Of a DNA stretch of 43,628 bases, positions 3,622 through 43,628 are shown in pieces. The translations under genes were made by a program, and so were the position numbers. The stretch spans positions 136,803-180,430 of the forward strand of contig JBBDPM010000006.1 of NCBI GenBank assembly GCA_040876345.1, read 5' to 3'. How positions within the stretch are numbered: position 1 is the stretch's first letter; each line of letters starts with the position of its first letter. Source of the stretch: Candidatus Woykebacteria bacterium. Its GTDB lineage: Bacteria > Patescibacteriota > Microgenomatia > Woykebacterales > RBG-16-39-9b. A model generated the notes under the pieces. It made no database searches. It was not told where the DNA came from and was given only the letters and a program-made list of their open reading frames with translations.

Positions 3622-6600
3622 ATGCTCATCCCTGCCCAAGGAGTTGAATCAGGATTTACCACACAAACAGAATCTAGTAGTGGGGTTGGTCCCTCCTTCC
3701 CCTCCCCAGAAACTGCTCATCAATCCCCTCCTCAAACACCAGATAATGAAGACCAGATCCCCCATCAAGATAGAGGCCAAGGGGGAGATACTAAAAAAGG
3801 GGCAGATAGCCCCAATAGTGGTGGCCAAGGAGGACAAGAAATACAGTCTAAACCAGTTGAAGATGGTGGGCAAGTAGATGATGGTATTCTATCATTAACC
3901 CCAGCGGAAGAAGCAACGCCAGAAGTTATAACACCAGCTGCCCCAACACCAATAACAGAGTCCGCATCGCAAATCGAACTTGACTTGCTTGAGTATGATA
4001 CTAAATTACGAAACCACATTGGAGTGGGTAGAAGTAAGTGGAGAAAAGCAAGCGCTGCGCAACGATTAGCCTACTTAAGAGGTAGTGGGAAACAACCAGA
4101 AGGGTTGTTGGAGAGACTGGAAGGAACATCGGGCCACCGTGGACAAGCTCCCCAAGCCTCTAGGAGAGCTCCGTCTGGGTCAGCACCTACCCCGACTGAA
4201 GTACCCAACGCTGGGACAGAAGATAATTTTACACAACCAGAAGTGGGAGCTGGTGCTAAACTTCCAGATGTACCATCAGAAACCCAGCCTGCTACGGAAG
4301 CGGTAGCTGCTGTGTCCCCACCCCAAGGTCCTGAAACTCCCGCCCCACTTCCTCTTCCAACGGGAAGACGCGGGGATGATCTTGCAGAAGAAAGAGGTTA
4401 CCAACGCACCGGTCCACCAGTCGCTCGTAGCCGCCCAGCTGCCCGACAAACACCGCCAGCAGTTTCTGCGGGCGATGAGGCAGTAGTTCAACCCGATGAC
4501 TCCGAAGAACCAAATCCCGCAATCACAGAACCTGTTAAAAGTCCAGAACAAACAGCAACATCTGAGGTACCACCTGGGGCAGTGGTAATTGAAGCAGTAC
4601 CAAGAGGAGTTGCTGATTTCTGGAGTCTAGTTCACGAAGGGAAAGCGAAGGTGCCGTCGGGCAAAGTAGCCAAGCGAATCTCTGAAGACGTTGTAAAACT
4701 GGGAATCATGAGTCCGGAGGAGGTGGATCAGAAGCAAAGAACTATGGAAGGTAAAAGAGCAATACTCGCCGCTTGGCATAAAGAACTTGGCAATAGAATA
4801 CCGATACTAAAAGAAACACCAGATACCACCGTCAGGACTGACAGCGCACCTCCACCACCCAAAGGCGATGATAGCTCTGTAGCCCCAGCCATCGAAGAGT
4901 CAGCTAAAAGGCTTGGTTTAACAAATGGGCAATTCCTTGCTCTCCCTGAGGAAGAAAGAGTAAGACTCTTAAGTGAATCTCACTTAGCACGGGCAAAAGA
5001 ACAAGCAGATAGGCAACTAAGAATCGTTCGAGAAGAGGCAGAAACTGCTCTTAAGAGATTAAACGACGCCTTTGAAGAAAATCTACCTCCTACCGCGGCA
5101 GCATCAGCGGAAGTAGGGCCCAAAACTGCAGAACTTGGTCCTAGGCAGTTTAGTACTCTATCTAAAGCTTTAGATAAATACAACTCTGACGATCCTTCGA
5201 CTTTACCAGATTTAACTAATAGTGGTCTTAAGGGAGCTGTTCTAAAAGCCCGCCGCCAACTCGGAATTAAGCCCAACCCAACCAACCCCGCAGAAGTGTT
5301 GAATGAGCTTAAAGAGGCATTTAATAATGGTAGAATCAAGGGAAAAGCACCAATCCCTAGAGAATCAACACCCCGCCCTCCACAAAACCAAGGGCAAAAG
5401 GAATCAGACCAAGAGGCCAAACAAGGTTTTGCCGAGCGAATTACAAAGGGCGCCGCGAAAAAAGTCCGAGCTGGAGCCGAAAAATACTCTGGATTCGTAG
5501 CCGGCAGAGAAGAATCACTGCGCGCTAAGGCAGAGGCGTCTGAAAGTAGGATAAAGAGATTCCTCTTTAATTCAGCCGCTAATTTTTTAAATAATTACCA
5601 TGCAAGAGATAAGGAGGCCCCTTGGTATTACGGTGCTTTTGTAGTTAGCGGCGGCGCAAATGCCGCTCTTACTATCTTTGCTCCCTTCACTGCTGTCGGC
5701 CCTGGTCGTTTCCTGCGCTCCTTAGCTATAACCGGGACCACCCACGCCCTAGGTGCTGGTGTAAACCTAGGCAGAAGAGTTGTTATGGGTAGCGTTCTTT
5801 CGGGTTATATTGACTCTGATGAAGGTGCTAAAAACTTTAATTTTAGATCTGCAAAAGACGCTCGAAACTACTATGTAACTCAGTTTAATGAGGCGTTCCT
5901 TCTTAAAAGAATTGGTGAGGAAGAATTTGGTGCTCGTCTGCAGCAACTTTCCCAGGAAGTTTTCTTAAGGTTTGGTAAAACTGCTTTTGGCCATAATTTC
6001 TCGAAGGAGCTTGAAGAAGGAGGCCTTAGGCTTCTAAGAGAACGGATGATGGGCACCTTGGACCGCTACCATCAGTACAATAACATTGTTCGTAGTGTTG
6101 CGGCAGGCATGAAAGCAGGTGCTACAGTGACAACCATCGGCTTTGGAATCGACCAAGGATTATCAAAGGGTTTTGAAAAGTTAATGGGGCTTATTCACCA
6201 CCCCACGGCAGAAGTGCCCGGTCAGCCAGGACTTCCTTCTGGGCCCCCAGATTATTCCAAGGAGCTTCCGCTTGCTCCGCCAGAAGGTTCCAATGTTAAC
6301 CCGGAAGATTGGCGCCGTTTTGCTTCGGCCTACAACTCTTTAACTCCAGACCGTCGAGATGATTTTATTGAAATCATGGGTGACCCAAAAAGAGTTCAGG
6401 ATCTTATTGACTGGTCCGAAGCACACAATGTGGTTACTCCCCCAACGCCGGAAGCAATACCAATTGAGTTTCAGAGATTTCTGGACAACCAAAATAATTT
6501 TACTGAATTAGACATAAACAGAGGCGATACAGTTGGAAAACTAGCCTTTAACAGAGGGTATGATAATTTTTGGGATGCAAATCCAACGAGTGCGGCGGCT

Positions 6601-6858
6601 AAAGGTGCAACCATATTGGAAAATGAGGGGCTGTTAAGAACTTCAGCGGAAAATGCAGCAAGACAAGGATATGCTGCTGCCGACATGCCAACACATCAAG
6701 AGTTGATAGGTTTGATGAGGCAAGCAGCTGGTGGTAATGAAGCAGCCGATGCCGAACTAGACAGGGTCTTGCATTGGATTCCTCAAGGCCGTAAATTACG
6801 GTTATTAAAACTTGGATCGACTAGCGAAATTATTAAGGAGCTAGATTTAGCAGCTTGA
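3622..6858 (+). CDS. giant (1078 aa) protein: long Pro/Glu/Ala/Gln-rich disordered N-half, central hydrophobic hairpin, globular C-terminal part
   Basis: A single long ORF. Hydrophobic segments WYYGAFVVSGGANAALTIFAPFTAV and SLAITGTTHALGAGVNLG lie near residues 640-720. The C-terminal stretch ELDINRGDTVGKLAFNRGY is weakly LysM-like. I recognise no catalytic motif. Confidence 0.7.
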   Translation: MLIPAQGVESGFTTQTESSSGVGPSFPSPETAHQSPPQTPDNEDQIPHQDRGQGGDTKKGADSPNSGGQGGQEIQSKPVEDGGQVDDGILSLTPAEEATPEVITPAAPTPITESASQIELDLLEYDTKLRNHIGVGRSKWRKASAAQRLAYLRGSGKQPEGLLERLEGTSGHRGQAPQASRRAPSGSAPTPTEVPNAGTEDNFTQPEVGAGAKLPDVPSETQPATEAVAAVSPPQGPETPAPLPLPTGRRGDDLAEERGYQRTGPPVARSRPAARQTPPAVSAGDEAVVQPDDSEEPNPAITEPVKSPEQTATSEVPPGAVVIEAVPRGVADFWSLVHEGKAKVPSGKVAKRISEDVVKLGIMSPEEVDQKQRTMEGKRAILAAWHKELGNRIPILKETPDTTVRTDSAPPPPKGDDSSVAPAIEESAKRLGLTNGQFLALPEEERVRLLSESHLARAKEQADRQLRIVREEAETALKRLNDAFEENLPPTAAASAEVGPKTAELGPRQFSTLSKALDKYNSDDPSTLPDLTNSGLKGAVLKARRQLGIKPNPTNPAEVLNELKEAFNNGRIKGKAPIPRESTPRPPQNQGQKESDQEAKQGFAERITKGAAKKVRAGAEKYSGFVAGREESLRAKAEASESRIKRFLFNSAANFLNNYHARDKEAPWYYGAFVVSGGANAALTIFAPFTAVGPGRFLRSLAITGTTHALGAGVNLGRRVVMGSVLSGYIDSDEGAKNFNFRSAKDARNYYVTQFNEAFLLKRIGEEEFGARLQQLSQEVFLRFGKTAFGHNFSKELEEGGLRLLRERMMGTLDRYHQYNNIVRSVAAGMKAGATVTTIGFGIDQGLSKGFEKLMGLIHHPTAEVPGQPGLPSGPPDYSKELPLAPPEGSNVNPEDWRRFASAYNSLTPDRRDDFIEIMGDPKRVQDLIDWSEAHNVVTPPTPEAIPIEFQRFLDNQNNFTELDINRGDTVGKLAFNRGYDNFWDANPTSAAAKGATILENEGLLRTSAENAARQGYAAADMPTHQELIGLMRQAAGGNEAADAELDRVLHWIPQGRKLRLLKLGSTSEIIKELDLAA

Positions 6859-6859
6859 T

Positions 6860-7177
6860 ATGTCGGACTTAAACCAAGTAATAACAATTCTTCGCGAAAA
6901 CAAAGTCGCTGATGATGAAATCGCTCAGTTTGTTGTGAATTCTAACAATTTAATAGCTGAAAAAATGATGGTGGAAATTACCATGGCACTAGATGAGAGA
7001 GATGCTTCTGAGATTGATAAGATGAGCGATGCACAAGGCCAAGAGGAAGTTTATAAGCGTTTCAGGGAAAAAACTGGGAAAGATATTGAGGATGTGCGAT
7101 CTGAAGTAGTCGACGCTTTTGTCTCTGGTTTTCTCACCAAATACCACCAAGATAAACTCCAAGGAAAAAAAGAATAA
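6860..7177 (+). CDS. small acidic helical protein (105 aa), unknown function
   Basis: The ATG lies 1 nt after the giant gene stop, suggesting translational coupling. Composition is helical and acidic, with no TM segment. Confidence 0.55.
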   Translation: MSDLNQVITILRENKVADDEIAQFVVNSNNLIAEKMMVEITMALDERDASEIDKMSDAQGQEEVYKRFREKTGKDIEDVRSEVVDAFVSGFLTKYHQDKLQGKKE

Positions 7178-7181
7178 TATC

Positions 7182-8126
7182 TCATCTAATAGTTAGCCGT
7201 TTAAACACTGTGTAGAAAAACGCCCCAAAACCAAACCTGCCAAAACTCTTTTCGTTAACCTTATCAAAAGCATCTATTCCCCACTTTGCATCCAAAGCTT
7301 CCCGAAACTCGGCAACCCTTCCGTCGAAGTAAGCCCCATCAGCAATATTTGGCCCAACCACACGAGCCATTACTCCATAAGCTAATGCTCTTGGGAGGTA
7401 AAATGGGTTCATGATATTATAAATAAAACCTTCTTGGGACGCTGCCTGCCTGGCGTAATATTCAGTTGCCCCCTCATTAATAGGCGTATCCATAGCCCCT
7501 GCAGATGCTAAATGTAAATCTTCATGATACATGGTTCGCTTTACTAAAAATCTTGGCAATCCCCCATTAATAACTGTCTCAAAACTACCAAACGCCCACC
7601 CGGCTACCGGAAGTGGTAGAGTTTTAAGTATACTTACTAATCTCTCATTCATGACGTGAAATCTCTGTTTTAAGGCAAACTCATTAAAAGAATCTCGATT
7701 TGCTATAAAAGTGGTATCCTCAGCACCATCCAGTCTTTCGTTAATGTTGTAACCAGGAAAAGTTTCTTGCAGGTTACTTATCACCACACTTTGCATATCT
7801 TTTATTTCATCGATAGTATAACTATTAGACTTCTTTAATCCCAAATAGTTCATTCTACTTTCGTGTTCTTCTCTCGGGTTCAGTTGGTTACTTCCTTGTG
7901 CCGATGTAGACTGGTGAGTCTCCCGCTCCGCAACACTCCGACTCAGGTCAACTCGAATCTCTGCAATTCTTTCTTTATCTTCTCTCCTTTGCTTTTCACC
8001 ACTCTCTCTCAATTGTTCCTGTTTTCTATCACGACCTATGTGTTCCTGAACACTTCCAGTTTTTTCTTTCACAGTAATATTTTCCGGTTGAGACTCAAAT
8101 TTTGGGATTTCAGGGCTACCTTGCAT
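7182..8126 (-). CDS. putative gluzincin-type zinc metallopeptidase with disordered N-terminus
   Basis: HExxH motif (MYHEDLHLA) is followed 11 residues later by INEGATEYYA, a thermolysin-like position for the third ligand Glu. The first ~100 aa are charged and low-complexity. The ATG abuts the stop of the upstream ATPase (TAAATG). Confidence 0.6.
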   Translation of the reverse strand: MQGSPEIPKFESQPENITVKEKTGSVQEHIGRDRKQEQLRESGEKQRREDKERIAEIRVDLSRSVAERETHQSTSAQGSNQLNPREEHESRMNYLGLKKSNSYTIDEIKDMQSVVISNLQETFPGYNINERLDGAEDTTFIANRDSFNEFALKQRFHVMNERLVSILKTLPLPVAGWAFGSFETVINGGLPRFLVKRTMYHEDLHLASAGAMDTPINEGATEYYARQAASQEGFIYNIMNPFYLPRALAYGVMARVVGPNIADGAYFDGRVAEFREALDAKWGIDAFDKVNEKSFGRFGFGAFFYTVFKRLTIR

Positions 8127-10670
8127 TTACTGTCCTCCTGTTTGAGGATTTGGTGCAGGCGGGGCTGGCTGCACTGGTTGAGGAAAAGAAGACGAAGTGT
8201 TGGGGCTAATCTGCGACGGATAGTTTGGTTCTGGTGGAGCCCCTAGAACTGCATTTTTCTGCTCAGAAGGAACCAAGGGTTCATTTAAACCAGCTCTCTC
8301 TTCGATTTCGGCTTCTACAATCTCGCGATCACGACCATAGCGCAAGCGAGATAATTCCTTTATGGAACTTGCCACTTGCTGATCCCTTTTTGCCGCTTGC
8401 ATTACAGGCCAATCAGTCTGCATGGAAAAAGGCACGGTTGGCTGCCCGGTTACTAAAAGCCTCATGTAGGCTTGGCCCACGGGATTATTTATTAAATCTT
8501 GTTTTTTGAAGACAGGGTCGAACTGATGCTCAAGATACTCGGCATCATCCACGCCCACTCTGAAAGCCGAAAGTGTCCCCACGTTTCCAAAAACCGCTTC
8601 CCGTATATTTTCCTCCCGAATTTGGGCGATAAATTGGTTGGCGACTGTCAAATTAAGATGGTATTTACGTGCTTCAGACAAAATCTGCGCAAAATCTGGA
8701 GTGGCAAAGTTTTGGAATTCATCTACGTAAAGGTAGAAGTCCCTTCGCTGCTCCTCCGGCACATCCACTCTACTCATAGCCGCGACCATTAGTCTTGGAA
8801 CCAGCACCAAACCAAGAAAGTTAGAATTTTCCTCTCCTATCTTCCCTTTCGAAAGATCCACTAGCAAAATCTTACCCTCATCCATCACCCTCCGAAAGTC
8901 AAAGGCAGATTTACCCTGACCAATAATATTGCGCATCAGTTTATCGGTAACAAATCGATCAAACTTGGACACAAAATACCCCATTACTTCACTCTTGTGA
9001 AAAGCTGTTGTTTGGGCCATTTCATCAGTCCAGTAACGACGCACCAAAGGATCATTAAGCTTTGGCAGTTTTTCCTTGACAAAATTTGGATCTGTCAGAA
9101 GCCTCAGCACTTCAACCAAAGTGTTCTCCGGCTCACACATGGCAGTTAGCATTACGTTTCGGATAGCCCTCTCTAAGCGCGGGCCCATTATTCCGGTGCG
9201 ACGCGGATCGTACAATTTGTAGAGAAGATTGATAAAGTTGTTAACAATCATGTGTTTTTGCTCTTCAGTCTTGGCTTCAATAATATTTATCCCCAGTGGT
9301 CTTTCCGTATCCCCAGCATCAAAATAAATAACATCTTCGGCTCTCTCGGGTGGAACTTGCTGCAAGATATCTTCAATGGCCGGCCCATGAGGGTCAATAA
9401 AACAGATCCCTCTGCCCTCTTTAATGTCTTGAATAGCCATAAATTTCATATACTCACTTTTTCCAGTACCAGTCTGCCCGATTACATACATGTGACGACG
9501 CCGGTCATCCGGTAAAATATGCACCTTTGTCTCGACCCCGCGGAAAACGCTCTTACCCAAATAAAGACCCTGCTGAGGAACGGCAACTGGCGCAGCGGCT
9601 TTTTTGGAAAGAAGCCAATTGATATTTGGTGTAACGACGTTTTTATTTGGTAAATGAAAAATGGTTGCAAGCTCGGTGGAGGTGAGAACCATTTTACCAA
9701 AAACAGCCGGCACCATTTTGTTAACAAAGTGCTTAAGTGATAACTTTTTTGTAAGGGTCCAGGGCCAACGGCGAGGCCGGAAACCGTTACCCACTGGATC
9801 ACTAAATTGGCCAAAAGCCCCAACCATATTTTGAATATAATGAGAGGCGTTAACCTTACCGTTTGCCGAGACCACAAACCGAATAACAGTTTCAAACCCA
9901 GGCTTTGAGCATTTTTCTTCAATTTTTTTGTAAGGATCCCCGGTGATAGACTCGGTTCTTGCTGCTGGTTGCTCGGCAGCTGCCTGCTGTGAATTTTGCG
10001 ATGGCAAGTTAAACGGAGTAATTATCCCCAGAGCCCCACCCGTTTTAACGGTCTGGGATTTATGAATATATTTAAAACCCTTACTCTGCCAAGCGCTTCC
10101 TGCTGGCGCAAACAAAATTTGTAAGACGGCCGCTTCCCCTTGCTCTAATTTGGACAAAGCGGTCGTTATTGCGTTTAAAGAATCGATATTTTCGCCCATT
10201 TCTTTAAACCGCAATATTGGTTTGTAGACGGCCGAGCGCTGACTAAACTCAACAATATCTACATATTTATCGGGACGAAAGATGGAATACTCTGGTACCG
10301 GTTCAATCTCAGCTTCCGGATAATATGAGTTAATTTGTTTTTCGACTAGTTTTTGAAGGGCCAGGGGTGTGGTTACGTAAAAATTAATCTGACCGTCCTT
10401 AACAACAATTTCAAAGCCAATGTGATCTTGCCCCTTCATCAACCCGTGAATACCGTAGCGGAAAAGAGAATGGAAGGCGGTAAACATAGTTTCGGCTACC
10501 TCAATTTTAGTTTCGTTGTAGCGAGGAACCCGCACCAAAAGCTGACTGTAATATAGAGAGCGTTTCTCCCTTTGGGAATAACGAGACCAAAATATGGCCC
10601 CCAAGACTGCTCCGATGATTACTAAAATCGTGGTTAATACAAATATGAAAAGAAAGATAATTGCTAACAA
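8127..10670 (-). CDS. TraD/VirD4/TraG-family (T4SS coupling-protein-like) membrane ATPase
   Basis: N-terminal TM helix IIFLFIFVLTTILVIIGAVLGAIFW; Walker A VIGQTGTGKSEY; Walker B YLYVDEFQNF; SEARKYHLNLTVANQ resembles the TraG-D_C region. The tail is P/Q-rich. TTG start lies 8-9 nt after a GGAGG inside the upstream gene end. Confidence 0.8.
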   Translation of the reverse strand: MLAIIFLFIFVLTTILVIIGAVLGAIFWSRYSQREKRSLYYSQLLVRVPRYNETKIEVAETMFTAFHSLFRYGIHGLMKGQDHIGFEIVVKDGQINFYVTTPLALQKLVEKQINSYYPEAEIEPVPEYSIFRPDKYVDIVEFSQRSAVYKPILRFKEMGENIDSLNAITTALSKLEQGEAAVLQILFAPAGSAWQSKGFKYIHKSQTVKTGGALGIITPFNLPSQNSQQAAAEQPAARTESITGDPYKKIEEKCSKPGFETVIRFVVSANGKVNASHYIQNMVGAFGQFSDPVGNGFRPRRWPWTLTKKLSLKHFVNKMVPAVFGKMVLTSTELATIFHLPNKNVVTPNINWLLSKKAAAPVAVPQQGLYLGKSVFRGVETKVHILPDDRRRHMYVIGQTGTGKSEYMKFMAIQDIKEGRGICFIDPHGPAIEDILQQVPPERAEDVIYFDAGDTERPLGINIIEAKTEEQKHMIVNNFINLLYKLYDPRRTGIMGPRLERAIRNVMLTAMCEPENTLVEVLRLLTDPNFVKEKLPKLNDPLVRRYWTDEMAQTTAFHKSEVMGYFVSKFDRFVTDKLMRNIIGQGKSAFDFRRVMDEGKILLVDLSKGKIGEENSNFLGLVLVPRLMVAAMSRVDVPEEQRRDFYLYVDEFQNFATPDFAQILSEARKYHLNLTVANQFIAQIREENIREAVFGNVGTLSAFRVGVDDAEYLEHQFDPVFKKQDLINNPVGQAYMRLLVTGQPTVPFSMQTDWPVMQAAKRDQQVASSIKELSRLRYGRDREIVEAEIEERAGLNEPLVPSEQKNAVLGAPPEPNYPSQISPNTSSSFPQPVQPAPPAPNPQTGGQ

Positions 10671-10671
10671 A

Positions 10672-11229
10672 CTAATAACCTCCGCCAGGGAACTTTTCCA
10701 AACGCCTTGATATCAATCTCATCTGCTCTTCTCTTATATTCTTGTACGTTTGAACAGGCACTGTATAAGGAGAGATTTCGTTAATTAATTTCTGTCCAGG
10801 CTGCGGCCAACCTGGTGGATTAGGAATTTGAGTACTTGGGACAACAGTTTCCGCGATTTGACCATTTGCTGTTTGTTGGGTTGTTTCATGTCCTGGCCTT
10901 AAACCCTCAGTTTGACGCATCTCGGACTGTTTTTGTTCTTGCACTGGAAGTCTTTGAGCTTCCTGGACAAGACTAGAACCCCCTATCTGACCTTCTGTCT
11001 GACCTTCTGAATGTGTAAGGTTTGGATGTGTTTTTTCTTCTGGTTGAGGATTCGATATTTCCTTAACCCTCTTCTCTCCTGGTCTTGGATAATCTAAAGG
11101 TTCAGGCACTGGGGATCGTCCCTCACCAAATGGTTGACCCTGATTTTGAAAATCCTGAGCACTCTCAACCTCAGGAATTAAATGGGTTTCAGGAATAGAA
11201 GTAGTACCCTCTTGGGCAGGGATATTCAT
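10672..11229 (-). CDS. Pro/Gln/Glu-rich intrinsically disordered protein (185 aa)
   Basis: First gene of the minus-strand operon, with low-complexity composition. The N-terminus MNIPAQEG matches MLIPAQGV of the giant protein. Only the last ~40 aa look ordered (YTVPVQTYKNIREEQMRLISRRLEKF). Confidence 0.6.
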   Translation of the reverse strand: MNIPAQEGTTSIPETHLIPEVESAQDFQNQGQPFGEGRSPVPEPLDYPRPGEKRVKEISNPQPEEKTHPNLTHSEGQTEGQIGGSSLVQEAQRLPVQEQKQSEMRQTEGLRPGHETTQQTANGQIAETVVPSTQIPNPPGWPQPGQKLINEISPYTVPVQTYKNIREEQMRLISRRLEKFPGGGY

Positions 11230-11238: not shown

Positions 11239-11290
11239 ATTTTAACACCCTTGCTTTTTTGTTGCAATTTTTCTTAATAGAGGTTAGATT
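11239..11290. promoter_or_regulatory. back-to-back divergent promoters sharing one palindromic -35 hexamer
   Basis: TTGCAA (11262-11267) is its own reverse complement. On the plus strand it gives TTGCAA-17-TAGATT (11285-11290). On the minus strand it gives TTGCAA-17-TAAAAT (11244-11239, with a TGt extension), 9 nt before the ATG at 11229. Confidence 0.5.
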
Positions 11291-11333
11291 TTTAATGCGT
11301 CCTTATGACGGGGTGGGAGAAAGGAGTCTCCCA

Positions 11334-11669
11334 GTGAAAAAAAGCTCTTGGTTGGACATGATCGTGACGGAGGTTGAGGCTGAGGTTTGGAGATTGCGGT
11401 TCGACCCAGATCGCCTGTTAACCCAATCTCAAATAGCAGCTGAGACCGGTCATAAATCGGTAGGAAACCAACTAACCTCGGCTTTGAGAAGGCTCCAAGC
11501 ACGAGGTCCTGGTCTTCCACCAAGCTCGGAGGAGCAAGAGCTTATCGATCTGGCATTGCTTGCTACCGGGGCGAAGAATTTGGAACAAGCGTATCAGACC
11601 AGAAACGAGCAGGTAAGACGCCTCTCACTGGCAACCAGGCACAGGATCTTCCACGATTCGCAGCGCTGA
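11334..11669 (+). CDS. small GC-elevated HTH protein (islet gene P2), candidate divergent regulator
   Basis: GTG at 11334 is preceded by AAGGAG (11321-11326), which forms the loop of a 6-bp hairpin GGGAGA/TCTCCC (11315-11332). An alternative in-frame ATG lies at 11295. The HTH-like segment is LLTQSQIAAETGHKSVGNQLTSALRRLQ. A hairpin AGCGCTGA/TCAGCGCT (11662-11690) spans the stop. Confidence 0.5.
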   Translation: MKKSSWLDMIVTEVEAEVWRLRFDPDRLLTQSQIAAETGHKSVGNQLTSALRRLQARGPGLPPSSEEQELIDLALLATGAKNLEQAYQTRNEQVRRLSLATRHRIFHDSQR

Positions 11670-13722: not shown

Positions 13723-14406
13723 TCAGGCCGTTGGCGGCTTATCCATCGGTACTTCCTCTGGCACGTAAACTTCATCTTTTCGAGACCTTTTTACCCAGTA
13801 TCGATAGCCAAAAAAGGCAACCGTCGCCACTATTATTATGTAGATAACTATTAAAATTATCCTACCAAAACTAGATTGACCTTTCGTGGTTGTCTCAGAA
13901 GTTGGTCCGCCCAAATAAAGCACTGATTCCCCTACTTCGGCTAGAGCGTCGGTGCCCTTTCCATGAGTAGCAACATTAGAGTCTACCGTGGAATCGTTTG
14001 TGAAGTCAATTTTAATTACTTCTTCTCCACCAAGCTTAGCCCTGAACTTGACAGTAGCGAAAATATCATTTCCTGAGAAATACGTTCCAGTGGCTGCAGA
14101 AAGGGCGGTTATGTTTATCTTACCCTCCCCCATTTCCTTAACGGGGTAGTTTGGATAAATTGTTCCTGGGGTGACATCGAGCGCTTCGAGCTTTTCAGGA
14201 TTATAGAGCAAACTCAAGTCTGCACCGTCAGTTGCTACCCCCTTTGTGTCAAGGTAGACATCCACGCTAAACTCCTGTCCTGCCTCAGTACTAATAACCT
14301 CCGGACTCAAGGAGAAAGACGCCGCCCAAGCCTTGTCGGCGACTATAAGTAGCAGCAGTACTCCTAAAATTGGGCCACCTAAGCCTAGGAAAATATTTCG
14401 CAACAT
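13723..14406 (-). CDS. cohesin-like domain protein, C-terminally membrane-anchored
   Basis: Signal peptide (ILGVLLLLIVADKAWA), then a beta-sandwich with a cohesin-like pattern (FSVDVYLDT..DLSLLYNPEKLEALDV..INITALS..FATVKFRAKLGG). A C-terminal TM helix (IILIVIYIIIVATVAFFGY) and a short basic tail follow. Confidence 0.6.
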   Translation of the reverse strand: MLRNIFLGLGGPILGVLLLLIVADKAWAASFSLSPEVISTEAGQEFSVDVYLDTKGVATDGADLSLLYNPEKLEALDVTPGTIYPNYPVKEMGEGKINITALSAATGTYFSGNDIFATVKFRAKLGGEEVIKIDFTNDSTVDSNVATHGKGTDALAEVGESVLYLGGPTSETTTKGQSSFGRIILIVIYIIIVATVAFFGYRYWVKRSRKDEVYVPEEVPMDKPPTA

Positions 14407-14408
14407 TT

Positions 14409-15533
14409 CTAACTTCCCACCTTTCCTAAATTCTTTATTAATATTGAATAGTCCAACGAATTAAGCACGCTGTCAAAATTCAAATCGTTCCGGCTACCTT
14501 CCGAAAAGTTCTCAAACATTATATCAACATCGGCGTTGGTTATTTTATTGTCTTTATTCAAATCCCCAAGATAGAGAGTCCCCGCCTTTATCGACGGCTT
14601 GTAATCCTTAGCCGTAAATTTGACTCTCCTAGTTAAAATTTTATCACCAGAGACTTGCAGAGTATAGGTCGCATTTTGCCTTAGGATCCCTCTCTTAACG
14701 CTGGTCCTTATCTCACCTGTTGTGTTATAAAGAGTCAGAGTCTCTTTAAACTTTGTCCCCTTGATTGAAATAGTAACCGGTAGACCACCTGAGAGCTCTT
14801 GGACGGGGTTGATAAGTATCTTAAGGAAGGTTATTGATTTATCTCCGGCTGGGGGTGGCACGGCGCTAGCACCCGAATTTGGAGAAACTATTCTTGGTGC
14901 CCGGGTGCGGGGCAGGTTTAGTGTGGGATTTGGGGTCGGCGTTGGTGTTGGTGAAGGTGGGGGTGGAACTGAAACTGTGATTGTCTTTGATTTTGACACC
15001 ACTCCTCCAGGACCAGTCGCCGTAAGAGTGTAAGTTGTGGTTGAGGAAGGTGTTACTGATCGCGACCCGGATTTTGCAACCGCCCCGATACCAGGTGATA
15101 TGCTAACCGTGTCTGCTCGATACGTTGTCCAACTAAGAGTAGTTGACTCTCCTCTTGTAATACTAGTTCTACTAGCCGATAAATTAGCGGTCGGTGGACA
15201 AGTCTCGCCTAAATGAGAATTTATTACTGCAACATCGGCACTTGTTACCGTCCCATCGCCATTAAGATCGTATTTTGGATCGTAATTTGGCTGTCCTTGA
15301 TAAATTCCAAAGTGATCAATTAGGAGATCGCGGTCTTTAGTATCAACCCGGCCATCGCCATTAAAATCGTAGCACGCTGCTGCCTGAGAAAAGCCTGTTC
15401 TTAATTGAAGAGCCGAATAAACAGTAAGGGGTATTAAGAAAAGTATTAATAATGTAGCCAGAGCTATAAAATTTTTTTGGGAGATAAGGCTTAAAAATTT
15501 ACCAACTTTTATCTCTCTGTTAGACCTGTGCAC
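14409..15533 (-). CDS. surface protein with N- and C-terminal dockerin-like modules and Ig-like middle domains
   Basis: Signal anchor followed by EF-hand-like repeats CYDFNGDGRVDTKDRDLL and YDLNGDGTVTSADVAVI bracketed by Cys. Then an Ig-like domain (GESTTLSWTT..TTTYTLTATGPGG), a Pro-rich linker, a beta domain, and C-terminal GDLNKDNKITNADVD / LNFDSVLNSLDYSILIKNL. The start codon (GTG 15533) is uncertain. Confidence 0.65.
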   Translation of the reverse strand: MHRSNREIKVGKFLSLISQKNFIALATLLILFLIPLTVYSALQLRTGFSQAAACYDFNGDGRVDTKDRDLLIDHFGIYQGQPNYDPKYDLNGDGTVTSADVAVINSHLGETCPPTANLSASRTSITRGESTTLSWTTYRADTVSISPGIGAVAKSGSRSVTPSSTTTYTLTATGPGGVVSKSKTITVSVPPPPSPTPTPTPNPTLNLPRTRAPRIVSPNSGASAVPPPAGDKSITFLKILINPVQELSGGLPVTISIKGTKFKETLTLYNTTGEIRTSVKRGILRQNATYTLQVSGDKILTRRVKFTAKDYKPSIKAGTLYLGDLNKDNKITNADVDIMFENFSEGSRNDLNFDSVLNSLDYSILIKNLGKVGS

Positions 15534-15578
15534 TCCATAATGTTATCAGTAAAGAGGCTCCCCGGTCAAAACCTAATA

Positions 15579-16577
15579 TCAATTACCTTTTCTGCCAAGA
15601 TTGGTAATTATTATGGAGTAATCTAAAGAGTTGATCACCCCGTCGAGGTTAACGTCAGAAGAGCCTTGAGCAAAGTTTGATGACAATTTTTCCAAATCAG
15701 TCTCATCAATTATGTTGTTTAAACTTATATCCCCAAGATAAATCTTTCCCATTTTTATGATTGGCTTGTAAGAAGCTGATTTAAACCTTACTTTCTTGGT
15801 TAGTATTTTTTCACCTGCTAAAACTATAGTGTAAATCTTATTTTTAACCAAAGTTTTGGCTTTAACCTTGAAGGAGAGCTTTTCCGTTTTACTAGTAAGA
15901 ATGACATTCTGCTTGAATTTAGTCTTTTCAATCAAAATTGAGGTCGTAAGATTTCCAGAAAGCTCGGGCAATGGCTCAAAAGTAAAGGTGAGAAAAGTGA
16001 TCGACGTTGAATCCACTGGCGGTGGGGCAGTTTGGGAAGACCCTGGTACAGTAGAGCTTGGCATGGCCACGGTTATTTTAACTGATTTTGTGATTACTCC
16101 GCCCGGGCCTCGGGCCGTAAGTAAATAAGTGGTTGTAGCCCCTGGCCGAACCACTTTTGATCCAGATTTAGCGACAGTCCCAAGGGAGGAAATTGAAACA
16201 CTGCCAGTGCGGGTAGTTGACCAACGAAGAGTTGAAGACTCTCCCTTATTTATTCTTGTTCGTGAGGCTCTAAAATCTGCAGTTGGCGGGCATGTATCCC
16301 CTTTATGAGCAGATATTATGGCAATATCGGCGCTTGTAATAACCCCGTCTCCATTTTGATCATATTGGGAAGGCTTTCCAAAATCCTTTTGGACTAAAGC
16401 TAGATCGTCTTCATCCACTACCCCATCGCCATTCAAATCATAGCAGGAGGCTGCCTCTGGCGCGGAAGGCCTGGCACTAAGTGTGGAGTAAACGGTCAGG
16501 GGTAAAAGCAATAAAATTAAAAAAAAGGGAATAATGAAATACTTGTTTTTCGGGGAGAGCTTTTTATCTGCCGCCAT
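15579..16577 (-). CDS. paralogous double-dockerin-like surface protein
   Basis: Same architecture as 14409-15533: CYDLNGDGVVDEDDLALV, YDQNGDGVITSADIAII, Ig-like GESSTLRWST..TTTYLLTARGPGG, and C-terminal DVNLDGVINSLDYSIIITNL. Confidence 0.65.
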   Translation of the reverse strand: MAADKKLSPKNKYFIIPFFLILLLLPLTVYSTLSARPSAPEAASCYDLNGDGVVDEDDLALVQKDFGKPSQYDQNGDGVITSADIAIISAHKGDTCPPTADFRASRTRINKGESSTLRWSTTRTGSVSISSLGTVAKSGSKVVRPGATTTYLLTARGPGGVITKSVKITVAMPSSTVPGSSQTAPPPVDSTSITFLTFTFEPLPELSGNLTTSILIEKTKFKQNVILTSKTEKLSFKVKAKTLVKNKIYTIVLAGEKILTKKVRFKSASYKPIIKMGKIYLGDISLNNIIDETDLEKLSSNFAQGSSDVNLDGVINSLDYSIIITNLGRKGN

Positions 16578-26327: not shown

Positions 26328-26356
26328 TTGAAATTTAATCCAACTAATGTTATTAT
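26328..26356 (+). promoter_or_regulatory. promoter of islet gene P3
   Basis: TTGAAA (26328-26333), 17-nt spacer, TATTAT (26351-26356). The architecture matches the promoter at 32207-32235. Confidence 0.45.
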
Positions 26357-26412
26357 AGGCCGATTAACTGGGCCGGCCTGTATTCACGTAAGGGAATCGA
26401 AAGGAGCGCACC

Positions 26413-26745
26413 ATGCGAAAACTCAACTTGAGGCAACATCTGCAATTCGTCAAGGGAGTACCAGCGAGCATCGGTCGAACCAGACGGAGGCGTGTCCTCA
26501 GAAGCATTGATGGCTATCCCACTGCCATCGGCTACATGGATGCCTTCTGCCACCAGCACTGCGGGGCTCAACATCACGCGAACACACGCCAAGCGGTCCT
26601 TGCCTGTATCGCGAAGACACTCGGGATCAACGAGACGAAGGTCAAAGGGATTGAGAGCAGGGTCAACAGGACTCGGTTCGACTGGCGCCCTCTTACCCTG
26701 TGTCAGGAGTTGCTTCTGCTGCCCAACAAATCGACCGCGGACTGA
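26413..26745 (+). CDS. small GC-elevated protein with HTH-like segment (islet gene P3)
   Basis: The ATG lies 7 nt after AAGGAG. By my hand count third-codon positions are about 70% G/C in this frame, higher than first positions. The HTH-like segment is RQAVLACIAKTLGINETKVKGIESRV. The strand call is uncertain because a longer antisense ORF exists. Confidence 0.45.
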   Translation: MRKLNLRQHLQFVKGVPASIGRTRRRRVLRSIDGYPTAIGYMDAFCHQHCGAQHHANTRQAVLACIAKTLGINETKVKGIESRVNRTRFDWRPLTLCQELLLLPNKSTAD

Positions 26746-26824
26746 CTTCAGCGAAGAACCGGCCCAGGCACAAGTGAGAAGAGATCGCTGGGTCGAGGAT
26801 TTGCCCACCTCGACCCCTCGGTCC

Positions 26825-27895
26825 TCACACATTGAACTTGAATAGAGCTCCATCACCATCCTGAAAAACGTAATCTTTTCCTTCCATCCTCACGAGACCC
26901 TTTTCTCTGGCCTTTTGCCAACCACCCGCTTCAACTAGTTTTTCCCAATTTATAACTTCGGCTTTGATAAAGCCCCGTTCAAAATCAGTATGAATTGTGC
27001 CCGCTGCTTGGGGCGCTTTTGTCCTGTCAGGTATAGTCCAACCGCGGACTTCTTTTTCACCAGCCGTGAAAAAGGTAATTAAACCCAAAAGTTCGTAGGA
27101 CGCCTGAATTAGTTTTTCCAACCCGCTTTTTTTCTCCCCAAGATCCTTCAAATACTCTTTTTGCTCTTCTTCCGAAAGTGCCGAAAGCTCGGCTTCAATC
27201 TTAGCGCAGAGATAGACACTTGGGGAAGATTCTTCCGGAAATTTGGCTAATTTCTCTGAATCCTTTAAATCTTCCTCAGCAACATTAAAAACGTAAATAA
27301 CTGGCTTATTCGTAATCAGCGGCAGTTTTTTGGCAAATTCAGCAAACTTCTCGCTTACCGCCACATCTTTAGAAAAAGTTTCTTCCTCGAGCCCATCCTT
27401 GATTTTTTCCAAGACCAAAACTTCCTCTTTTGCCTCCTTAGAAATTTTTGCTTCTCTTTCTTTACCATCAATAAGTTTATTTACAGTTTCCAAATCGGCA
27501 AGCATTAATTCAATATTAATAGTCTCGACGTCACTCTTGGGATCAAGCCCTGATCGCACAACATCAGGGTCTTCAAAAGCTCGCACAACATGAGCAATAG
27601 CGTCTACCTCACGGATATGAGAAAGAAAACGGTTTCCAAGCCCTTCCCCCTTGTGGGCATCTTTGACTAGACCAGCGATGTCAACAAACTCGACCGTGGC
27701 CGCAATGATTTTTTCGGTACTCACCACTTTGGCAAGTTTTTCTAAACGAAAGTCTGGCACCTCAACCACACCAACATTTGGATCAATTGTGGTAAATGGA
27801 TAATTTGCGCTCTGGGCTACCTGCTTTTTTAGCAGGGCGTTAAAAAGCGTAGATTTACCAACGTTAGGCAAACCAACAATTCCGATTTTGAGCAC
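26825..27895 (-). CDS. ychF: redox-regulated ATPase/GTP-binding protein YchF
   Basis: GIVGLPNVGKSTLFNAL, a coiled-coil insert and a C-terminal TGS-like domain (FFTAGEKEVRGWTI..GTIHTDFERGFI). Confidence 0.92.
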   Translation of the reverse strand: MLKIGIVGLPNVGKSTLFNALLKKQVAQSANYPFTTIDPNVGVVEVPDFRLEKLAKVVSTEKIIAATVEFVDIAGLVKDAHKGEGLGNRFLSHIREVDAIAHVVRAFEDPDVVRSGLDPKSDVETINIELMLADLETVNKLIDGKEREAKISKEAKEEVLVLEKIKDGLEEETFSKDVAVSEKFAEFAKKLPLITNKPVIYVFNVAEEDLKDSEKLAKFPEESSPSVYLCAKIEAELSALSEEEQKEYLKDLGEKKSGLEKLIQASYELLGLITFFTAGEKEVRGWTIPDRTKAPQAAGTIHTDFERGFIKAEVINWEKLVEAGGWQKAREKGLVRMEGKDYVFQDGDGALFKFNV

Positions 27896-32271: not shown

Positions 32272-32730
32272 ATGGAGGAAACGGCTAAGACGTGTCGCAA
32301 CCCAAGGTGTGGTAAGCAAAGCCCTGCCGAAGCGCAACACTGCACTCATTGCGGGCTCTTGCTTAGCGGTAAGGTAACACGGCTCTGGGATAGTGATATC
32401 CTTGCGATCGTGGATGGCGCCGATTTTACCCCGCTTATCGAAGCTATATGGGAACCGGAGTGGCTCCAGCCGGATAGGCCCCGCTCGGTTTCCGCAGACC
32501 TAATCCGTTGGGCTTTTTCGGCTTTCCTAACCGAAAGGCAACAACAGGTGATGATCAGAAGGTTCGGTCTGGACGGGCAGGGTCGAAGGAGTGTCCGGCA
32601 GATCAAGGACGAGGCTAAGGTTAGCTCCACCTCAGTGCGCACATACATAACCTCATCGCTTATGAAACTGCGCTACCTTCGCACCCGTCTCGTCCTTTCA
32701 GGGAAGGAACCAAAACCCAAAAAATCGTGA
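32272..32730 (+). CDS. zinc-ribbon plus sigma-70 region-4-like HTH protein (islet gene P4)
   Basis: The ATG lies 4-5 nt after GGAAGGAGGG. The Zn ribbon is CRNPRCG...CTHCG. The segment LTERQQQVMIRRFGLDGQGRRSVRQIKDEAKVSSTSVRTYITSSLMKLR matches the sigma-70 region 4.2 pattern (RFGLDDG..T..EIG..FGVTRERIRQIE..AL.KLR). The ORF is GC-elevated. Confidence 0.65.
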   Translation: MEETAKTCRNPRCGKQSPAEAQHCTHCGLLLSGKVTRLWDSDILAIVDGADFTPLIEAIWEPEWLQPDRPRSVSADLIRWAFSAFLTERQQQVMIRRFGLDGQGRRSVRQIKDEAKVSSTSVRTYITSSLMKLRYLRTRLVLSGKEPKPKKS

Positions 32731-36544: not shown

Positions 36545-36578
36545 TTGGTGTACGCGCTTCGCCTGAGACCTTGTGGAT

Positions 36579-36890
36579 CTAGGCGGGCGCGGTGGTGGCG
36601 GCCAGGTTGTGCACCGTGACGCTGCCTTCGGTTTGGTCGATGAACTCCTGGAGCTCCGCTTCGGTGAGCGCCCAGAGCCGGCAGGCGTCGATCTTACCGA
36701 TGGTCATGATGGTGGCGTCGTCGAGCGTGGTTCCCAGCTTGAACAGCTGGTCGAGGTTGCCGCTGCAGGTCGCGACGACGGACCGGCGGCCCGTGGCGCG
36801 TTCGAAGACCGTAGTGAACCGCTCCCTGATCTCGCCGTCGCTGGCGCCATCGATCGGACCGTCCTCTTGGTCCCACTTCCTATGGAGCAT
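36579..36890 (-). CDS. hypothetical 103-aa protein with extreme GC3 (foreign-looking)
   Basis: By hand count about nine in ten codons of this frame end in G or C, which identifies the coding frame among the overlapping ORFs. The composition changes abruptly at both ends. The gene has its own terminator but no obvious SD. Confidence 0.55.
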   Translation of the reverse strand: MLHRKWDQEDGPIDGASDGEIRERFTTVFERATGRRSVVATCSGNLDQLFKLGTTLDDATIMTIGKIDACRLWALTEAELQEFIDQTEGSVTVHNLAATTAPA

Positions 36891-36921
36891 TTTTCTAGAA
36901 TAATTTGTTATAATTAAAATA

Positions 36922-40060: not shown

Positions 40061-40783
40061 CTACTTAAACGGATTTGGTACCCCAAGAGGATTGTTTGCG
40101 GGTTTCCCTTTAAATTTTATTCTTGTACTTAAGGACAAAAGTTTTTCCCGATCTGCAGAGCTTATAAAAAGGTCGTCGCTAAGTGTTGGGGCAAGATTAG
40201 ATTTTTCTACAGGTAACTCTAAAACTACGCTAGCGGTCAAATCTTCATCTTGACCTTTAATGGTAATATCACCTGCTCCTAATAAACGGTCTGTAAATTC
40301 AAGATTTGAGATGAATTTCAAGATATTTCTGAAACCCCCCTTGATCGTAATTTCGAGGGTATAATAGTTCCCCGAAGGAACAGCTGGGTTTAGGGTCGTA
40401 GTTGAAGTAGCAGGGGTTGATCCTCTCCCTGAAGCACTTGATCGCGCGGCTACATCCTCCATTTGAACTTTAGATGAGGCGGCTAAATTTTCTAAAATAC
40501 TTAAATCTCGCAATAAATCTTTTTCTGAAGGAATTAAGGAACTGACTATTGTGTAAAAATCCTCAATTTCCCCTCTATCTTGCCCTGCTAAGTTAGAGAT
40601 TTTCCCAGATAAGTCATCAATTTCCTTGATGAGTTCTTTGTTTTCCGGCTTCAAGCTCTGGTAGGAATTTAATCTGGGCAAACTTAGAAAATAGGTTATA
40701 AAAATTGTCATTAAAATAGTAAAAATAGCAGAGGCTAGTATAAAAATTATTGTCTTTTTCAAAAATATTTTTAGATACTTCAC
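40061..40783 (-). CDS. PilO-like bitopic protein (copy 2)
   Basis: N-terminal TM helix, a coiled coil with ..LIPSEKDLLRDLSILENLA.., a Ser/Thr linker and a C-terminal beta domain ending NNPLGVPNPFK. The start overlaps the pilN-like stop (GTGA). Confidence 0.55.
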   Translation of the reverse strand: MKYLKIFLKKTIIFILASAIFTILMTIFITYFLSLPRLNSYQSLKPENKELIKEIDDLSGKISNLAGQDRGEIEDFYTIVSSLIPSEKDLLRDLSILENLAASSKVQMEDVAARSSASGRGSTPATSTTTLNPAVPSGNYYTLEITIKGGFRNILKFISNLEFTDRLLGAGDITIKGQDEDLTASVVLELPVEKSNLAPTLSDDLFISSADREKLLSLSTRIKFKGKPANNPLGVPNPFK

Positions 40784-41334
40784 TTTATTTGCACCGTTAT
40801 TAAAAAATTATAAGATTCTTTTGAAGCCTTATCCACTTTAGTTAGATCGACTGAATCAAACTGGCTAGTTTGTCCTTGGAGAACGTTAAAAAATTGATAG
40901 ATTACGGCCGGATCTTTAGAAAAACCTTCTAAAGAAGCTCTCTTTTGAGTACTTAGTGTCAAACTATTGAGGTTTATTCCACCTGGCGTAACTTTAAGGA
41001 TTTTGTGGATCAACAAGTCCATTGGGGGGTGGGTGAGCTCGAAAGTATCGTGTATCGATATACCTGATTTAATTATCTTTGTCTGACTTGCAAGTGCAGA
41101 ATAAGCTTGAAGCTCTTGCTCTTTAGCCGCCTTCTGTTTTTCTAACCTGTCCCTAACCCCATCTTCGCTTTTTTCGGCCACCAAGAGAAAGGAAAAAAGA
41201 ACAAGCTCGGAAAACACCAAAACTACCGATGTTAAGAGCGTTGCAATCTTTATTTTGAAAACGCGGCTCTTCTGTTCTTCTTCTGGAATTAAATTTAACT
41301 CGCGCTCTTTTCCGCCAAAAAATCTAAAGGGCAT
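40780..41334 (-). CDS. pilN: PilN-like bitopic protein (copy 2)
   Basis: MPFRFFGGKERELNLIPEEEQ, then a TM helix, a coiled coil and a small C-terminal domain. The INL(I/L)P motif is typical of PilN. I chose the ATG at 41334. Confidence 0.6.
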   Translation of the reverse strand: MPFRFFGGKERELNLIPEEEQKSRVFKIKIATLLTSVVLVFSELVLFSFLLVAEKSEDGVRDRLEKQKAAKEQELQAYSALASQTKIIKSGISIHDTFELTHPPMDLLIHKILKVTPGGINLNSLTLSTQKRASLEGFSKDPAVIYQFFNVLQGQTSQFDSVDLTKVDKASKESYNFLITVQIK

Positions 41335-41415
41335 AGACTTATCAACCAAACTAATTTCTACTGAATCAATTTTCTTATCCTAACAAGAAAAAGTCAAACG
41401 CTACTACAGAGCAGA

Positions 41416-42231: not shown

Positions 42232-42773
42232 TAATTTTTAACCTTTGCCTCGATATTAAATGAATAGTCTGATCCAGAAATTTTATCCACGGATACCAAA
42301 GTTGGGGATTCAAACTCAGCTGACTTTTCTTGTAAAACCTCAAAAAATTGGTATACGCTCGCTACTTCCCCTTTACCAGAAATCTTCAGCTTTCCTTCCT
42401 TATCAACTGCAAGATTATCAAGAACAATGCCTTTTGGTACGGTTGACCTAATTTTCTCTATGTACTTATCAATAGATGAATTCGAAAGGTAAGTCTGGTA
42501 AACACTTAGCTTAGTTTTTACCTTTTTAAGATTAGATAATACAGGCGCAAATTGTTGCCACTGGGAGTTTTTCTCCTGAATCTCAGTAGAAAGCCTGCTT
42601 TGGGTGTTCTTGTCACGAGCCTCCAAAACAGCAAAAAAAGAATAGACTACTACCCCTAAACCGACCAAAACGGCAAAGCTAGAAATTATAATAATTGCAA
42701 TATTCCTATTGCGGGCGGCTCTCTCTTCTTCAGGTATTAAGTTAATATCTTTACTTTTACCAAATGGCCACAT
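42231..42773 (-). CDS. pilN: PilN-like bitopic protein (copy 1)
   Basis: MWPFGKSKDINLIPEEERAARNR followed by a TM helix and a coiled coil; paralogous to 40780-41334. Confidence 0.6.
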   Translation of the reverse strand: MWPFGKSKDINLIPEEERAARNRNIAIIIISSFAVLVGLGVVVYSFFAVLEARDKNTQSRLSTEIQEKNSQWQQFAPVLSNLKKVKTKLSVYQTYLSNSSIDKYIEKIRSTVPKGIVLDNLAVDKEGKLKISGKGEVASVYQFFEVLQEKSAEFESPTLVSVDKISGSDYSFNIEAKVKN

Positions 42774-43494: not shown

Positions 43495-43628
43495 TATTTT
43501 TCTTGCCACCCAAGAATACTATAATTGCCAATTTTTGGAAAATACGGAGGTGGTTCTAAAGTCAGGTTTTGATCGTAAGTTATCGTTCTATACTGATATC
43601 CGCTATCGCATGGATCCGAAAGAACCCA
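43494..43628 (-). CDS. 3' end of an unidentified upstream gene (partial, runs off the window)
   Basis: An open frame runs from the window edge (..SDPCDSGYQYRTITYDQNLTLEPPPYFPKIGNYSILGWQEK) to a TAA that overlaps the next ATG. Confidence 0.3.
   Translation of the reverse strand, partial: WVLSDPCDSGYQYRTITYDQNLTLEPPPYFPKIGNYSILGWQEK

Follow-up and report, generated by a model that had tools for sequence, protein, structure and literature searches.

What might a coupling-type ATPase do when no secretion system is encoded beside it? The question is raised by three minus-strand genes at positions 7182-11229 of a 43,628-nt stretch of a Candidatus Woykebacteria genome (assembly GCA_040876345.1, contig JBBDPM010000006.1, positions 136,803 to 180,430), the whole of which is referred to here as the window. 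Patescibacteria, the phylum of this organism, account for much of the diversity of bacteria, and most of them live on the surface of host cells, a lifestyle for which the type IV secretion system is essential in the one genetically tractable case. We know of no secreted substrate of a patescibacterial type IV secretion system (T4SS) and, to our knowledge, thousands of stray coupling-protein homologues in the phylum have no assigned role. An original prediction, made from the letters of the DNA alone, had described the cluster as an orphan membrane ATPase joined in one operon to an HExxH peptidase and a disordered protein, and had proposed a dedicated export or surface-assembly module. We find that the core of the locus is a Patescibacteria-wide pair, consisting of a small disordered protein and a DUF8128/VirD4-like ATPase. 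On the basis of gene context we propose, at a probability of roughly 0.4, that the ATPase is of the coupling type and is accompanied by adjacent, exchangeable effector cargo. The three genes are:

10672-11229, minus strand: 185-aa open reading frame (ORF), a disordered P/Q/E-rich protein translationally coupled to the ATPase
8127-10670, minus strand: 847-aa ORF with a TTG start, the membrane-anchored ATPase
7182-8126, minus strand: 314-aa ORF with a zincin-like C-terminal domain, in a variable slot 3' of the ATPase

The packing of the three ORFs was confirmed from the sequence, as were both junctions and the short convergent gap that follows them. A single nucleotide lies between the stop of the 185-aa gene and the TTG start of the ATPase gene, with GGAGG 7 nt 5' of the TTG, while the junction between the ATPase and 314-aa genes reads TAAATG with AGGAGG ahead of it; both arrangements are compatible with translational coupling of the three genes. 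The stop of the 314-aa gene lies 4 nt (7178-7181) from that of a convergent 105-aa gene. Among the three operon proteins, the ATPase anchor is the only hydrophobic Sec-type N-terminus.

The 847-aa protein belongs to a Patescibacteria-wide family in which a transmembrane (TM) helix is followed by DUF8128 and a VirD4/TrwB-like ATPase domain. A homologue search of 5.8 billion proteins, from which 8,000 candidates were scored, yielded at least 5,485 relatives; those with a named source organism came nearly always from a Patescibacteria lineage, and the closest were from Woykebacteria (65-79% identity). According to precomputed Pfam annotation, PF26449 (DUF8128) is N-terminal in every relative among the matches listed, and literature searches for PF26449 or DUF8128 returned nothing. 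Translation confirmed the Walker A and Walker B motifs and the N-terminal TM helix of the ATPase, together with the HEDLH and NEGATEY motifs of the 314-aa protein. An AlphaFold model of the ATPase, built on 26 homologues, had a mean pLDDT of 81, and the following elements were assigned:

10575-10667, minus strand: TM helix, residues 2-32, Kyte-Doolittle 3.33, helical at 2-32 in the AlphaFold model, followed by a basic stretch
9651-10553, minus strand: DUF8128 (PF26449) alpha/beta N-domain, residues ~40-340, with a disordered loop at 209-243 in the AlphaFold model
9456-9479, minus strand: Walker A GQTGTGKS; G398, T400, G401, G403 and K404 invariant in the 26 homologues
8706-8729, minus strand: Walker B YVDEFQNF, residues 648-655, invariant in the 26 homologues
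8130-8276, minus strand: disordered P/Q-rich C-terminal tail, residues 799-847, pLDDT below 50

By the positive-inside rule, the remainder of the protein is predicted to be cytoplasmic. In the model the P-loop domain occupies residues 365-795 and carries an all-alpha insertion at ~465-598, with helices at 469-597 placed between the core strands, and since the Walker residues are invariant the protein is presumably an active enzyme. The assignment to VirD4/TrwB-like membrane ATPases made in the original prediction was borne out: TraG-D_C matched at 25.0 bits (Pfam cut-off 22) and DUF87 at 24 bits, with TrwB_AAD_bind (18.7 versus a cut-off of 20.5) and T4SS-DNA_transf (15.5 versus 20.1) both below threshold. 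Matches to the NCBIfam models TraD, CD1115 and CedD were weak and far under their cut-offs, and sequence matches in the PDB were to TrwB and DotL only, again weak. When the predicted structure was compared using Foldseek, it matched TrwB (TMt 0.56-0.62, root-mean-square deviation 5.4-7.4 Å, E ~1e-11), Cag-beta (TMt 0.54-0.58) and HerA. The best E-values were obtained with VirB4/TrwK (8.5e-17 over 838-924 columns), at a TM-score of 0.29. Judged from this model, the ATPase half of the 847-aa protein is type IV coupling protein (T4CP)-like, and its DUF8128 domain may resemble the N-domain of VirB4. Membership of the VirB4 family itself was not supported, with low scores from the sequence models (TIGR00929 13.6 bits, NF045971 17.8 bits) and no informative Pfam match to the N-domain in nine homologues, CagE_TrbE_VirB included.

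In common with the T4CPs VirD4, TrwB, TraD, DotL and Cag-beta, the ATPase has an N-terminal anchor, a P-loop domain with Walker A and B motifs and an inserted all-alpha domain, and it resembles DotL and TraD in being extended at the C-terminus. While T4CPs typically have two TM helices, the ATPase has one strong helix, and it further differs from them in the extra 300-aa DUF8128 domain placed between anchor and ATPase domain and in its core chromosomal context, never beside virB4, virB6 or a relaxase gene in the loci examined. VirB4/TrwK proteins, including VirB3-VirB4 fusions, share its length of ~800 aa and its layout of N-domain and ATPase domain; unlike these proteins, it has no VirB3, VirB6 or VirB8 neighbours.

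To place the cluster in a wider context, 80 genome loci and 80 metagenome loci encoding ATPase relatives were fetched (here and below, loci of relatives are labelled L0xx where one has to be named). Neighbour families were clustered in the 80 genome loci, while the metagenome loci were compared with the proteins of the window cluster only. The original prediction held that no T4SS or relaxase gene adjoins the ATPase. Family-model scans of the immediate neighbour proteins in the window gave no T4SS or relaxase match, and the neighbour families conserved across the 80 genome loci include none. As no more than two ORFs of the window are longer than 450 aa, it contains no VirB4-sized gene. The absence of such neighbours stands; it is the rule in the phylum and has been published. 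Across 2,918 Patescibacteria genomes, 5,713 VirD4-like T4CP homologues were counted, and no more than 148 of them lie close to virB4 (Quinonero-Coronel et al. 2025, PMC12102498). Relaxases are rare and T4CP homologues ubiquitous in Patescibacteria according to the same report, which explicitly raises exaptation of the stray homologues for another function (PMC12102498). The orphan status of the ATPase is thus already known and typical of its phylum. Those homologues and the present protein share phylum, ATPase class and distance from virB4, and the DUF8128 ATPase family would presumably be included in the published count. The DUF8128 architecture, the small upstream partner and the variable slot described below are not mentioned in the passages of that report that bear on these homologues. 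One fetched locus (L070:1170-6469) encodes two tandem ATPase paralogues (819 and 858 aa) with overlapping stop and start, which fits the published figure of about two T4CP homologues in an average patescibacterial genome (PMC12102498).

Across the 160 loci, the small disordered protein encoded upstream is the sole positionally conserved partner of the ATPase. A same-strand ORF of 70-260 aa ending no more than 120 nt from the ATPase start was found in 45 of 69 genome loci and 41 of 61 metagenome loci. An iterated profile derived from the Microgenomates copies recovered the upstream ORF in 32 loci, where homology is demonstrable; these proteins carry the motifs KE·EP, PEV··AGV and LPLT and a C-terminal amphipathic helix, W(L/W)··W··R··K. 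The 185-aa protein of the window (59% P/Q/E/G/S/T, without a hydrophobic segment) is the positional equivalent of this partner in position, size and disorder. No sequence similarity between it and the Microgenomates family was detectable with the iterated profile, which misses the Woykebacteria copies, and these copies align poorly with one another. Neighbour families that recurred in the genome loci were of the housekeeping kind, among them ribonucleotide reductase, cobalamin adenosyltransferase, SmpB, an FtsB-like protein and a XerC-like recombinase. XerC-like and FtsB-like genes lie downstream of the ATPase in many Microgenomates (L005-L063, for example L035:14859-15725), a placement that may simply have been inherited as synteny or may point to a role in division or DNA metabolism.

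The original prediction also linked the ATPase to the peptidase and to disordered genes. While the positional link to the upstream disordered gene held, that to the peptidase largely did not: when the 160 loci were searched by tblastn and with profiles, homologues of the 314-aa protein were absent bar one weak match, so the three genes do not form a conserved module. The weak match, to the zincin profile, is a 494-aa ORF in a distant lineage (L065:9874-11358; HEIFH…EEALTELW), two genes after the ATPase, and may represent an independent association.

What is conserved at the family level in Woykebacteria is an arrangement with a variable slot. RF1 and L31 genes on the opposite strand are followed by the small disordered protein, the ATPase and the slot, on which the 105-aa gene, a large-protein gene and HisRS converge from the other side. 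The slot is occupied by the zincin protein in the window and its subclade, by a HopA1-domain protein (PF17914, 6e-7) in L061, by a 283-aa acidic protein in L086 and in L091 by proteins of 344 and 232 aa together with one of 380 aa encoded on the reverse strand. In L093 it is filled by three or more genes in a row, and it is empty in the close relatives L085 and L088. In the more distant L089, which is without the flanking synteny, the ATPase is followed by same-strand genes for 58-aa, 426-aa and PP2C-domain proteins. Comparison of these sequences shows that the slot proteins are mosaics sharing N-terminal modules: residues 34-171 of a 564-aa protein in L093 are common to the N-region of the L089 PP2C protein, and residues 208-549 to the 344-aa protein of L091 (44% identity in both cases).

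Arrays of two to three same-strand genes 3' of the ATPase were observed at L093:98-4015, L094, L089:10089-11414 and L091:4560-6314, their products combining common N-terminal modules with differing C-terminal domains (zincin, PP2C or an unknown 340-aa domain). By analogy, this pattern resembles polymorphic effector cassettes. The N-termini of slot proteins are similar, acidic and proline-rich (MSGETPGPSPE, MQETPEVPQPD, MQGSPEIPKFE). Many ATPase-adjacent proteins in relatives also begin with acidic, proline-rich strings, and the 185-aa and 1078-aa proteins of the window start almost alike (MNIPAQEG, MLIPAQGVESG). Such N-termini may act as a signal or may reflect composition only. Statistical support for an N-terminal leader was sought and not established; the profile probably picks up P/E-rich composition.

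The 314-aa protein consists of a charged, disordered N-region with a long helix (residues 1-85), a family-specific middle and a C-terminal zincin-like domain, the coordinates of which are:

7212-7559, minus strand: zincin-like effector domain, residues ~190-305, with HEDLH at 7512-7526 and NEGATEY at 7458-7478

A word-indexed search returned nine homologues, and among the close homologues HE·LH and EGATEYYARQAA are invariant. H201, E202, H205 and E218 do not vary in ten close homologues; across 95 sequences H205 is invariant, and H201, E202 and E218 are each at least 90% conserved. The original prediction would have been weakened by loss of the HExxH motif in orthologues, and this loss was not seen. 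From the conserved motif, the protein is predicted to be zinc-protease-like. Its motif and spacing resemble the HExxH-x(n)-EGxTEY pattern of the gluzincins M1 and M61.

When 1.84 billion representative proteins were searched with a profile, 98 matched. About six of the matches were full length; approximately 90 were confined to profile positions 200-305 and mostly formed the C-terminal end of proteins ranging from 110 to 5,293 aa. The full-length family is tiny, at about a dozen sequences, while the domain itself recurs in other proteins. Pfam analysis of 95 domain-bearing proteins identified eCIS_core/DUF4157 in nine, WXG100 in three, PAAR in two and RHS in one. Recurrence at the C-terminus behind RHS, PAAR, WXG100 and eCIS_core is the signature of a polymorphic-toxin C-terminal domain, and the toxin ends of such systems (RHS, PAAR, WXG100/LXG, eCIS-DUF4157) share the terminal domain HExxH…NEGxTEY(F/Y)xR…AYFxG. 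This domain type points to a delivered effector rather than to a peptidase that processes disordered neighbours, as had been suggested. Unlike polymorphic toxins, the 314-aa protein carries the domain behind a charged disordered N-region and not behind a known trafficking domain, and without an immunity-like gene.

The profile of 95 sequences gave sub-significant PDB matches to M48 (E 0.034), M61 (E 0.041), M1 and an NleC-like protease, and one of the 95 relatives matched SprT-like at 2e-4. In the model of the 314-aa protein (pLDDT 66), a three-stranded sheet is followed by the HExxH helix and then by a second helix bearing the Glu, an arrangement compatible with a minimal zincin and not proof of one.

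Genomic contexts could be compared for five distinct members of the 314-aa family, four of which lie downstream of the ATPase, in one Woykebacteria subclade. The gene is directly 3' of the ATPase in the window, in P0127 (L081-L083) and in P0128 (L084), and is separated from it by one slot gene in P0131 (L093/L094). The fifth member, P0133 (L092, 32% identical), is on a 3.4-kb contig without an adjoining ATPase.

On the far side of the slot, two plus-strand genes converge on the operon:

6860-7177, plus strand: 105-aa ORF, an acidic helical protein
3622-6858, plus strand: 1078-aa ORF, a largely disordered protein, with a 1-nt gap before the 105-aa gene

The 105-aa protein is always paired with a large protein, and is conserved beside the ATPase cluster in Woykebacteria. 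Among the fetched loci, tblastn identified its homologues (40-47% identity) in L061, L081-L083, L085, L086, L088 and L091, and those of the 1078-aa protein were present in L061, L081, L085, L086 and L091. No Pfam family matched the 105-aa protein, and a word-indexed database search returned only the protein itself. The 1078-aa protein, previously described as a mostly disordered membrane protein, is indeed largely disordered; the membrane label is tentative because there is a single weakly hydrophobic segment (residues 671-689, Kyte-Doolittle 1.38), glycine-rich and contained in a conserved C-terminal region at ~490-1062.

Related layouts occur in two other loci with the pair co-directional with the ATPase. 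In L090, a 776-aa large protein, the start of which overlaps the ATPase stop, is followed by a 114-aa acidic protein, and L087 has a similar arrangement of 991-aa and 110-aa proteins; both large proteins are disordered and end in a hydrophobic C-terminal segment. The L090 776-aa protein and the 1078-aa homologue in L061 have one 86-aa segment in common, and neither pair gave a significant match to the 1078-aa or 105-aa proteins of the window. This layout hints that the ATPase is linked to a pair made up of a large protein and a small acidic protein.

Taking the locus as a whole, we propose that the ATPase would act like a T4CP, as a membrane-tethered hexamer that, driven by ATP, recruits proteins and unfolds them or feeds them to a membrane conduit. 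Genes of the downstream slot would encode its exchangeable cargo, recognised via common acidic, proline-rich N-terminal regions, and the 314-aa protein would be a delivered, zinc-protease-like effector and not a maturation peptidase. The conduit would be either the VirB4-type T4SS encoded elsewhere by most Patescibacteria, or else the neighbouring large protein together with the acidic 105-aa protein. The patescibacterial T4SS is described as essential for epibiotic growth (2025 review, PMC12857230). The same concept of a coupling ATPase serving diverse enzymatic effectors with a common recognition module is represented by VirD4-recognised T4SS effectors, namely the Xanthomonas X-Tfe proteins with their XVIPCD and the Dot/Icm effectors with IcmSW adaptors on DotL. 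While the common module of X-Tfe and Dot/Icm effectors is C-terminal, the common parts of the slot proteins are N-terminal. The 105-aa acidic helical protein is like adaptor or chaperone proteins in size and charge, by analogy only, and no homology of the cluster proteins to XVIPCD or IcmS/IcmW was found. A more far-reaching version, in which DUF8128/VirD4-like ATPases are recognition motors that deliver exchangeable effectors (zincin, HopA1-like, PP2C and others), recognised via an acidic, proline-rich N-terminal leader and common N-terminal modules in place of a C-terminal T4SS signal, with the upstream and 105-aa proteins as adaptors, we consider doubtful. If true, it would amount to a distinct mode of substrate selection feeding the host-directed arsenal of episymbiotic ultrasmall bacteria.

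Several observations weigh against the proposal that the slot genes encode cargo of the ATPase. Known T4SS substrates usually carry C-terminal and not N-terminal signals, and in a held-out profile test the cluster proteins came high in a ranking of 1,431 N-termini, although each taken singly had an E-value above 1. One TM helix per protomer cannot form a channel by itself. The adjacency of ATPase and slot genes, and the coupling of their starts and stops, occur in one family-level clade and could be due to nothing more than common descent; most Patescibacteria have housekeeping genes (XerC-like, FtsB-like, ATP-grasp, MFS) downstream of the ATPase. As for the 314-aa protein, its full-length model (pLDDT 66) gave no peptidase fold match with Foldseek against the PDB and BFVD, it matched no Pfam peptidase family, and NCBIfam and PDB sequence searches were likewise without a significant match. 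No candidate immunity gene was found 3' of it, the gene beyond its stop being the convergent 105-aa gene, which is kept also in loci without a zincin gene. Finally, a T4CP homologue was reported to be non-essential for epibiotic growth in Southlakia, where other T4SS genes are essential (PMC12102498).

A rival reading is that the ATPase moves DNA, for example in FtsK-like chromosome resolution or in DNA uptake or transfer, with the 314-aa gene as an unrelated neighbour. The FtsK/HerA/VirD4 superfamily has DNA as its ancestral substrate, and weak matches to HerA and CedD/CedB were obtained. The context of the gene is core, housekeeping and chromosomal in every lineage examined, and its downstream partner is not conserved phylum-wide. 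A XerC-like recombinase and an FtsB-like gene occur no more than four genes downstream in 31 of 75 loci, but they lie on the opposite strand (the recombinase usually so) and are absent from the window and from Woykebacteria loci. Moreover, neither an FtsK gamma nor a winged-helix domain is present in the ATPase, a relaxase is likewise lacking, and the ATPase is nearer in sequence and fold to TrwB, DotL and Cag-beta than to FtsK. The effector-like, mosaic downstream genes would also be left unexplained. We regard DNA translocation as rather unlikely, though it deserves serious consideration. The self-contained module of the original prediction, in which the ATPase exports or assembles the 185-aa and 1078-aa disordered proteins and the HExxH protein processes them, draws on the tight coupling of the three genes, the phylum-wide position of the upstream protein and the large protein with its 105-aa partner, which adjoin the ATPase through most Woykebacteria loci. 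Pairs in ATPase orientation in L087 and L090, the latter overlapping the ATPase stop, also favour it, although their homology to the 1078-aa family is only partial. However, almost every lineage in which the ATPase and its disordered partner are retained is without the peptidase-like gene, the slots of L085 and L088 are empty, that of L061 holds a HopA1 protein instead, and the zincin domain type is found at toxin ends and not in maturation proteases. Such a module is in our view improbable.

An anti-phage or conflict system (HerA- or MADS-like) with the zincin as its effector would account for a slot that behaves as a variable island with toxin-type domains, and the PADLOC model mad8 matches the ATPase domain (56.5 bits, E 7e-16), as do HerA defence models weakly. 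Yet the neighbours have no PADLOC match, and thus no other MADS or defence component, such as a methyltransferase, further mad genes or a NurA/Sir2-type partner, was detected among them. The ATPase is also near-universal, in a syntenic core context (HisRS, L31, RF1, PrmC) of uniform GC content, unlike defence islands, and we give this explanation very little credence. Set against these alternatives, a coupling-type ATPase with exchangeable effector cargo is the reading that we prefer.

The remainder of the window contains further features, including a promoter-like site upstream of the operon:

11239-11267, minus strand: TTGCAA, 17-nt spacer, TG-TAAAAT, ending ~10 nt before the 185-aa start codon, a consensus match only

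The promoter scan as a whole was at chance level (12 sites versus 9.0 ± 3.3 expected). The operon had been thought to share a promoter with a small helix-turn-helix (HTH) gene (11259-11669), a view that is not upheld, since the TTG start leaves only 29 nt and the promoter scan was not above chance; the gene product gave no HTH match in scans and no tblastn match in the relatives searched. The same gene is one of three small or medium putative regulators, the others lying at 1366-2190 and 32272-32730. Among these proteins, a zinc ribbon and a match of the sigma-70 region 4 type were found in that of 152 aa, while that of 274 aa has an acidic, proline-rich N-terminus (MGTTPENEPQLSP). No sign of a mobile element was seen: GC content is uniform, housekeeping synteny is kept, and the window is without tRNA genes or Rfam matches.

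No pilus-biogenesis partner adjoins the ATPase, as had been stated, and PilN/PilO-like genes do occur in the window ~30 kb away. These form two tandem pairs at 40061-42773, one with a Pfam PilN match at 1e-6, followed by a 223-aa Asp-rich repeat protein (42838-43509), and the whole resembles a portion of a cluster for type IV pilus assembly. At 13723-16577, a 227-aa protein adjoins two paralogues (332 and 374 aa) with N-terminal DxNGDG motifs. Syntenic genes in L085-L088 have Cohesin and faint Dockerin Pfam matches, and Woykebacteria may thus have conserved a surface system of the cohesin-dockerin type here. At 26353-26859 and 36573-36917, long ORFs of the two strands overlap, the second in a region of higher GC content, and no Rfam family or tRNA was found at either position.

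The kind of ATPase encoded here is known as phylum-wide and uncharacterised; what is new is the exchangeable, effector-like cargo that we infer, from gene context, for a lineage-specific slot. If the link between ATPase and cargo is not real, the locus is a typical phylum-wide ATPase beside lineage-specific genes. A clade in which the ATPase is followed by exchangeable toxin- and effector-type genes offers concrete candidate substrates, along with a recognition feature that can be tested. Should the link prove real, it would turn an annotation puzzle into an addressable hypothesis on how ultrasmall episymbionts act on their hosts.

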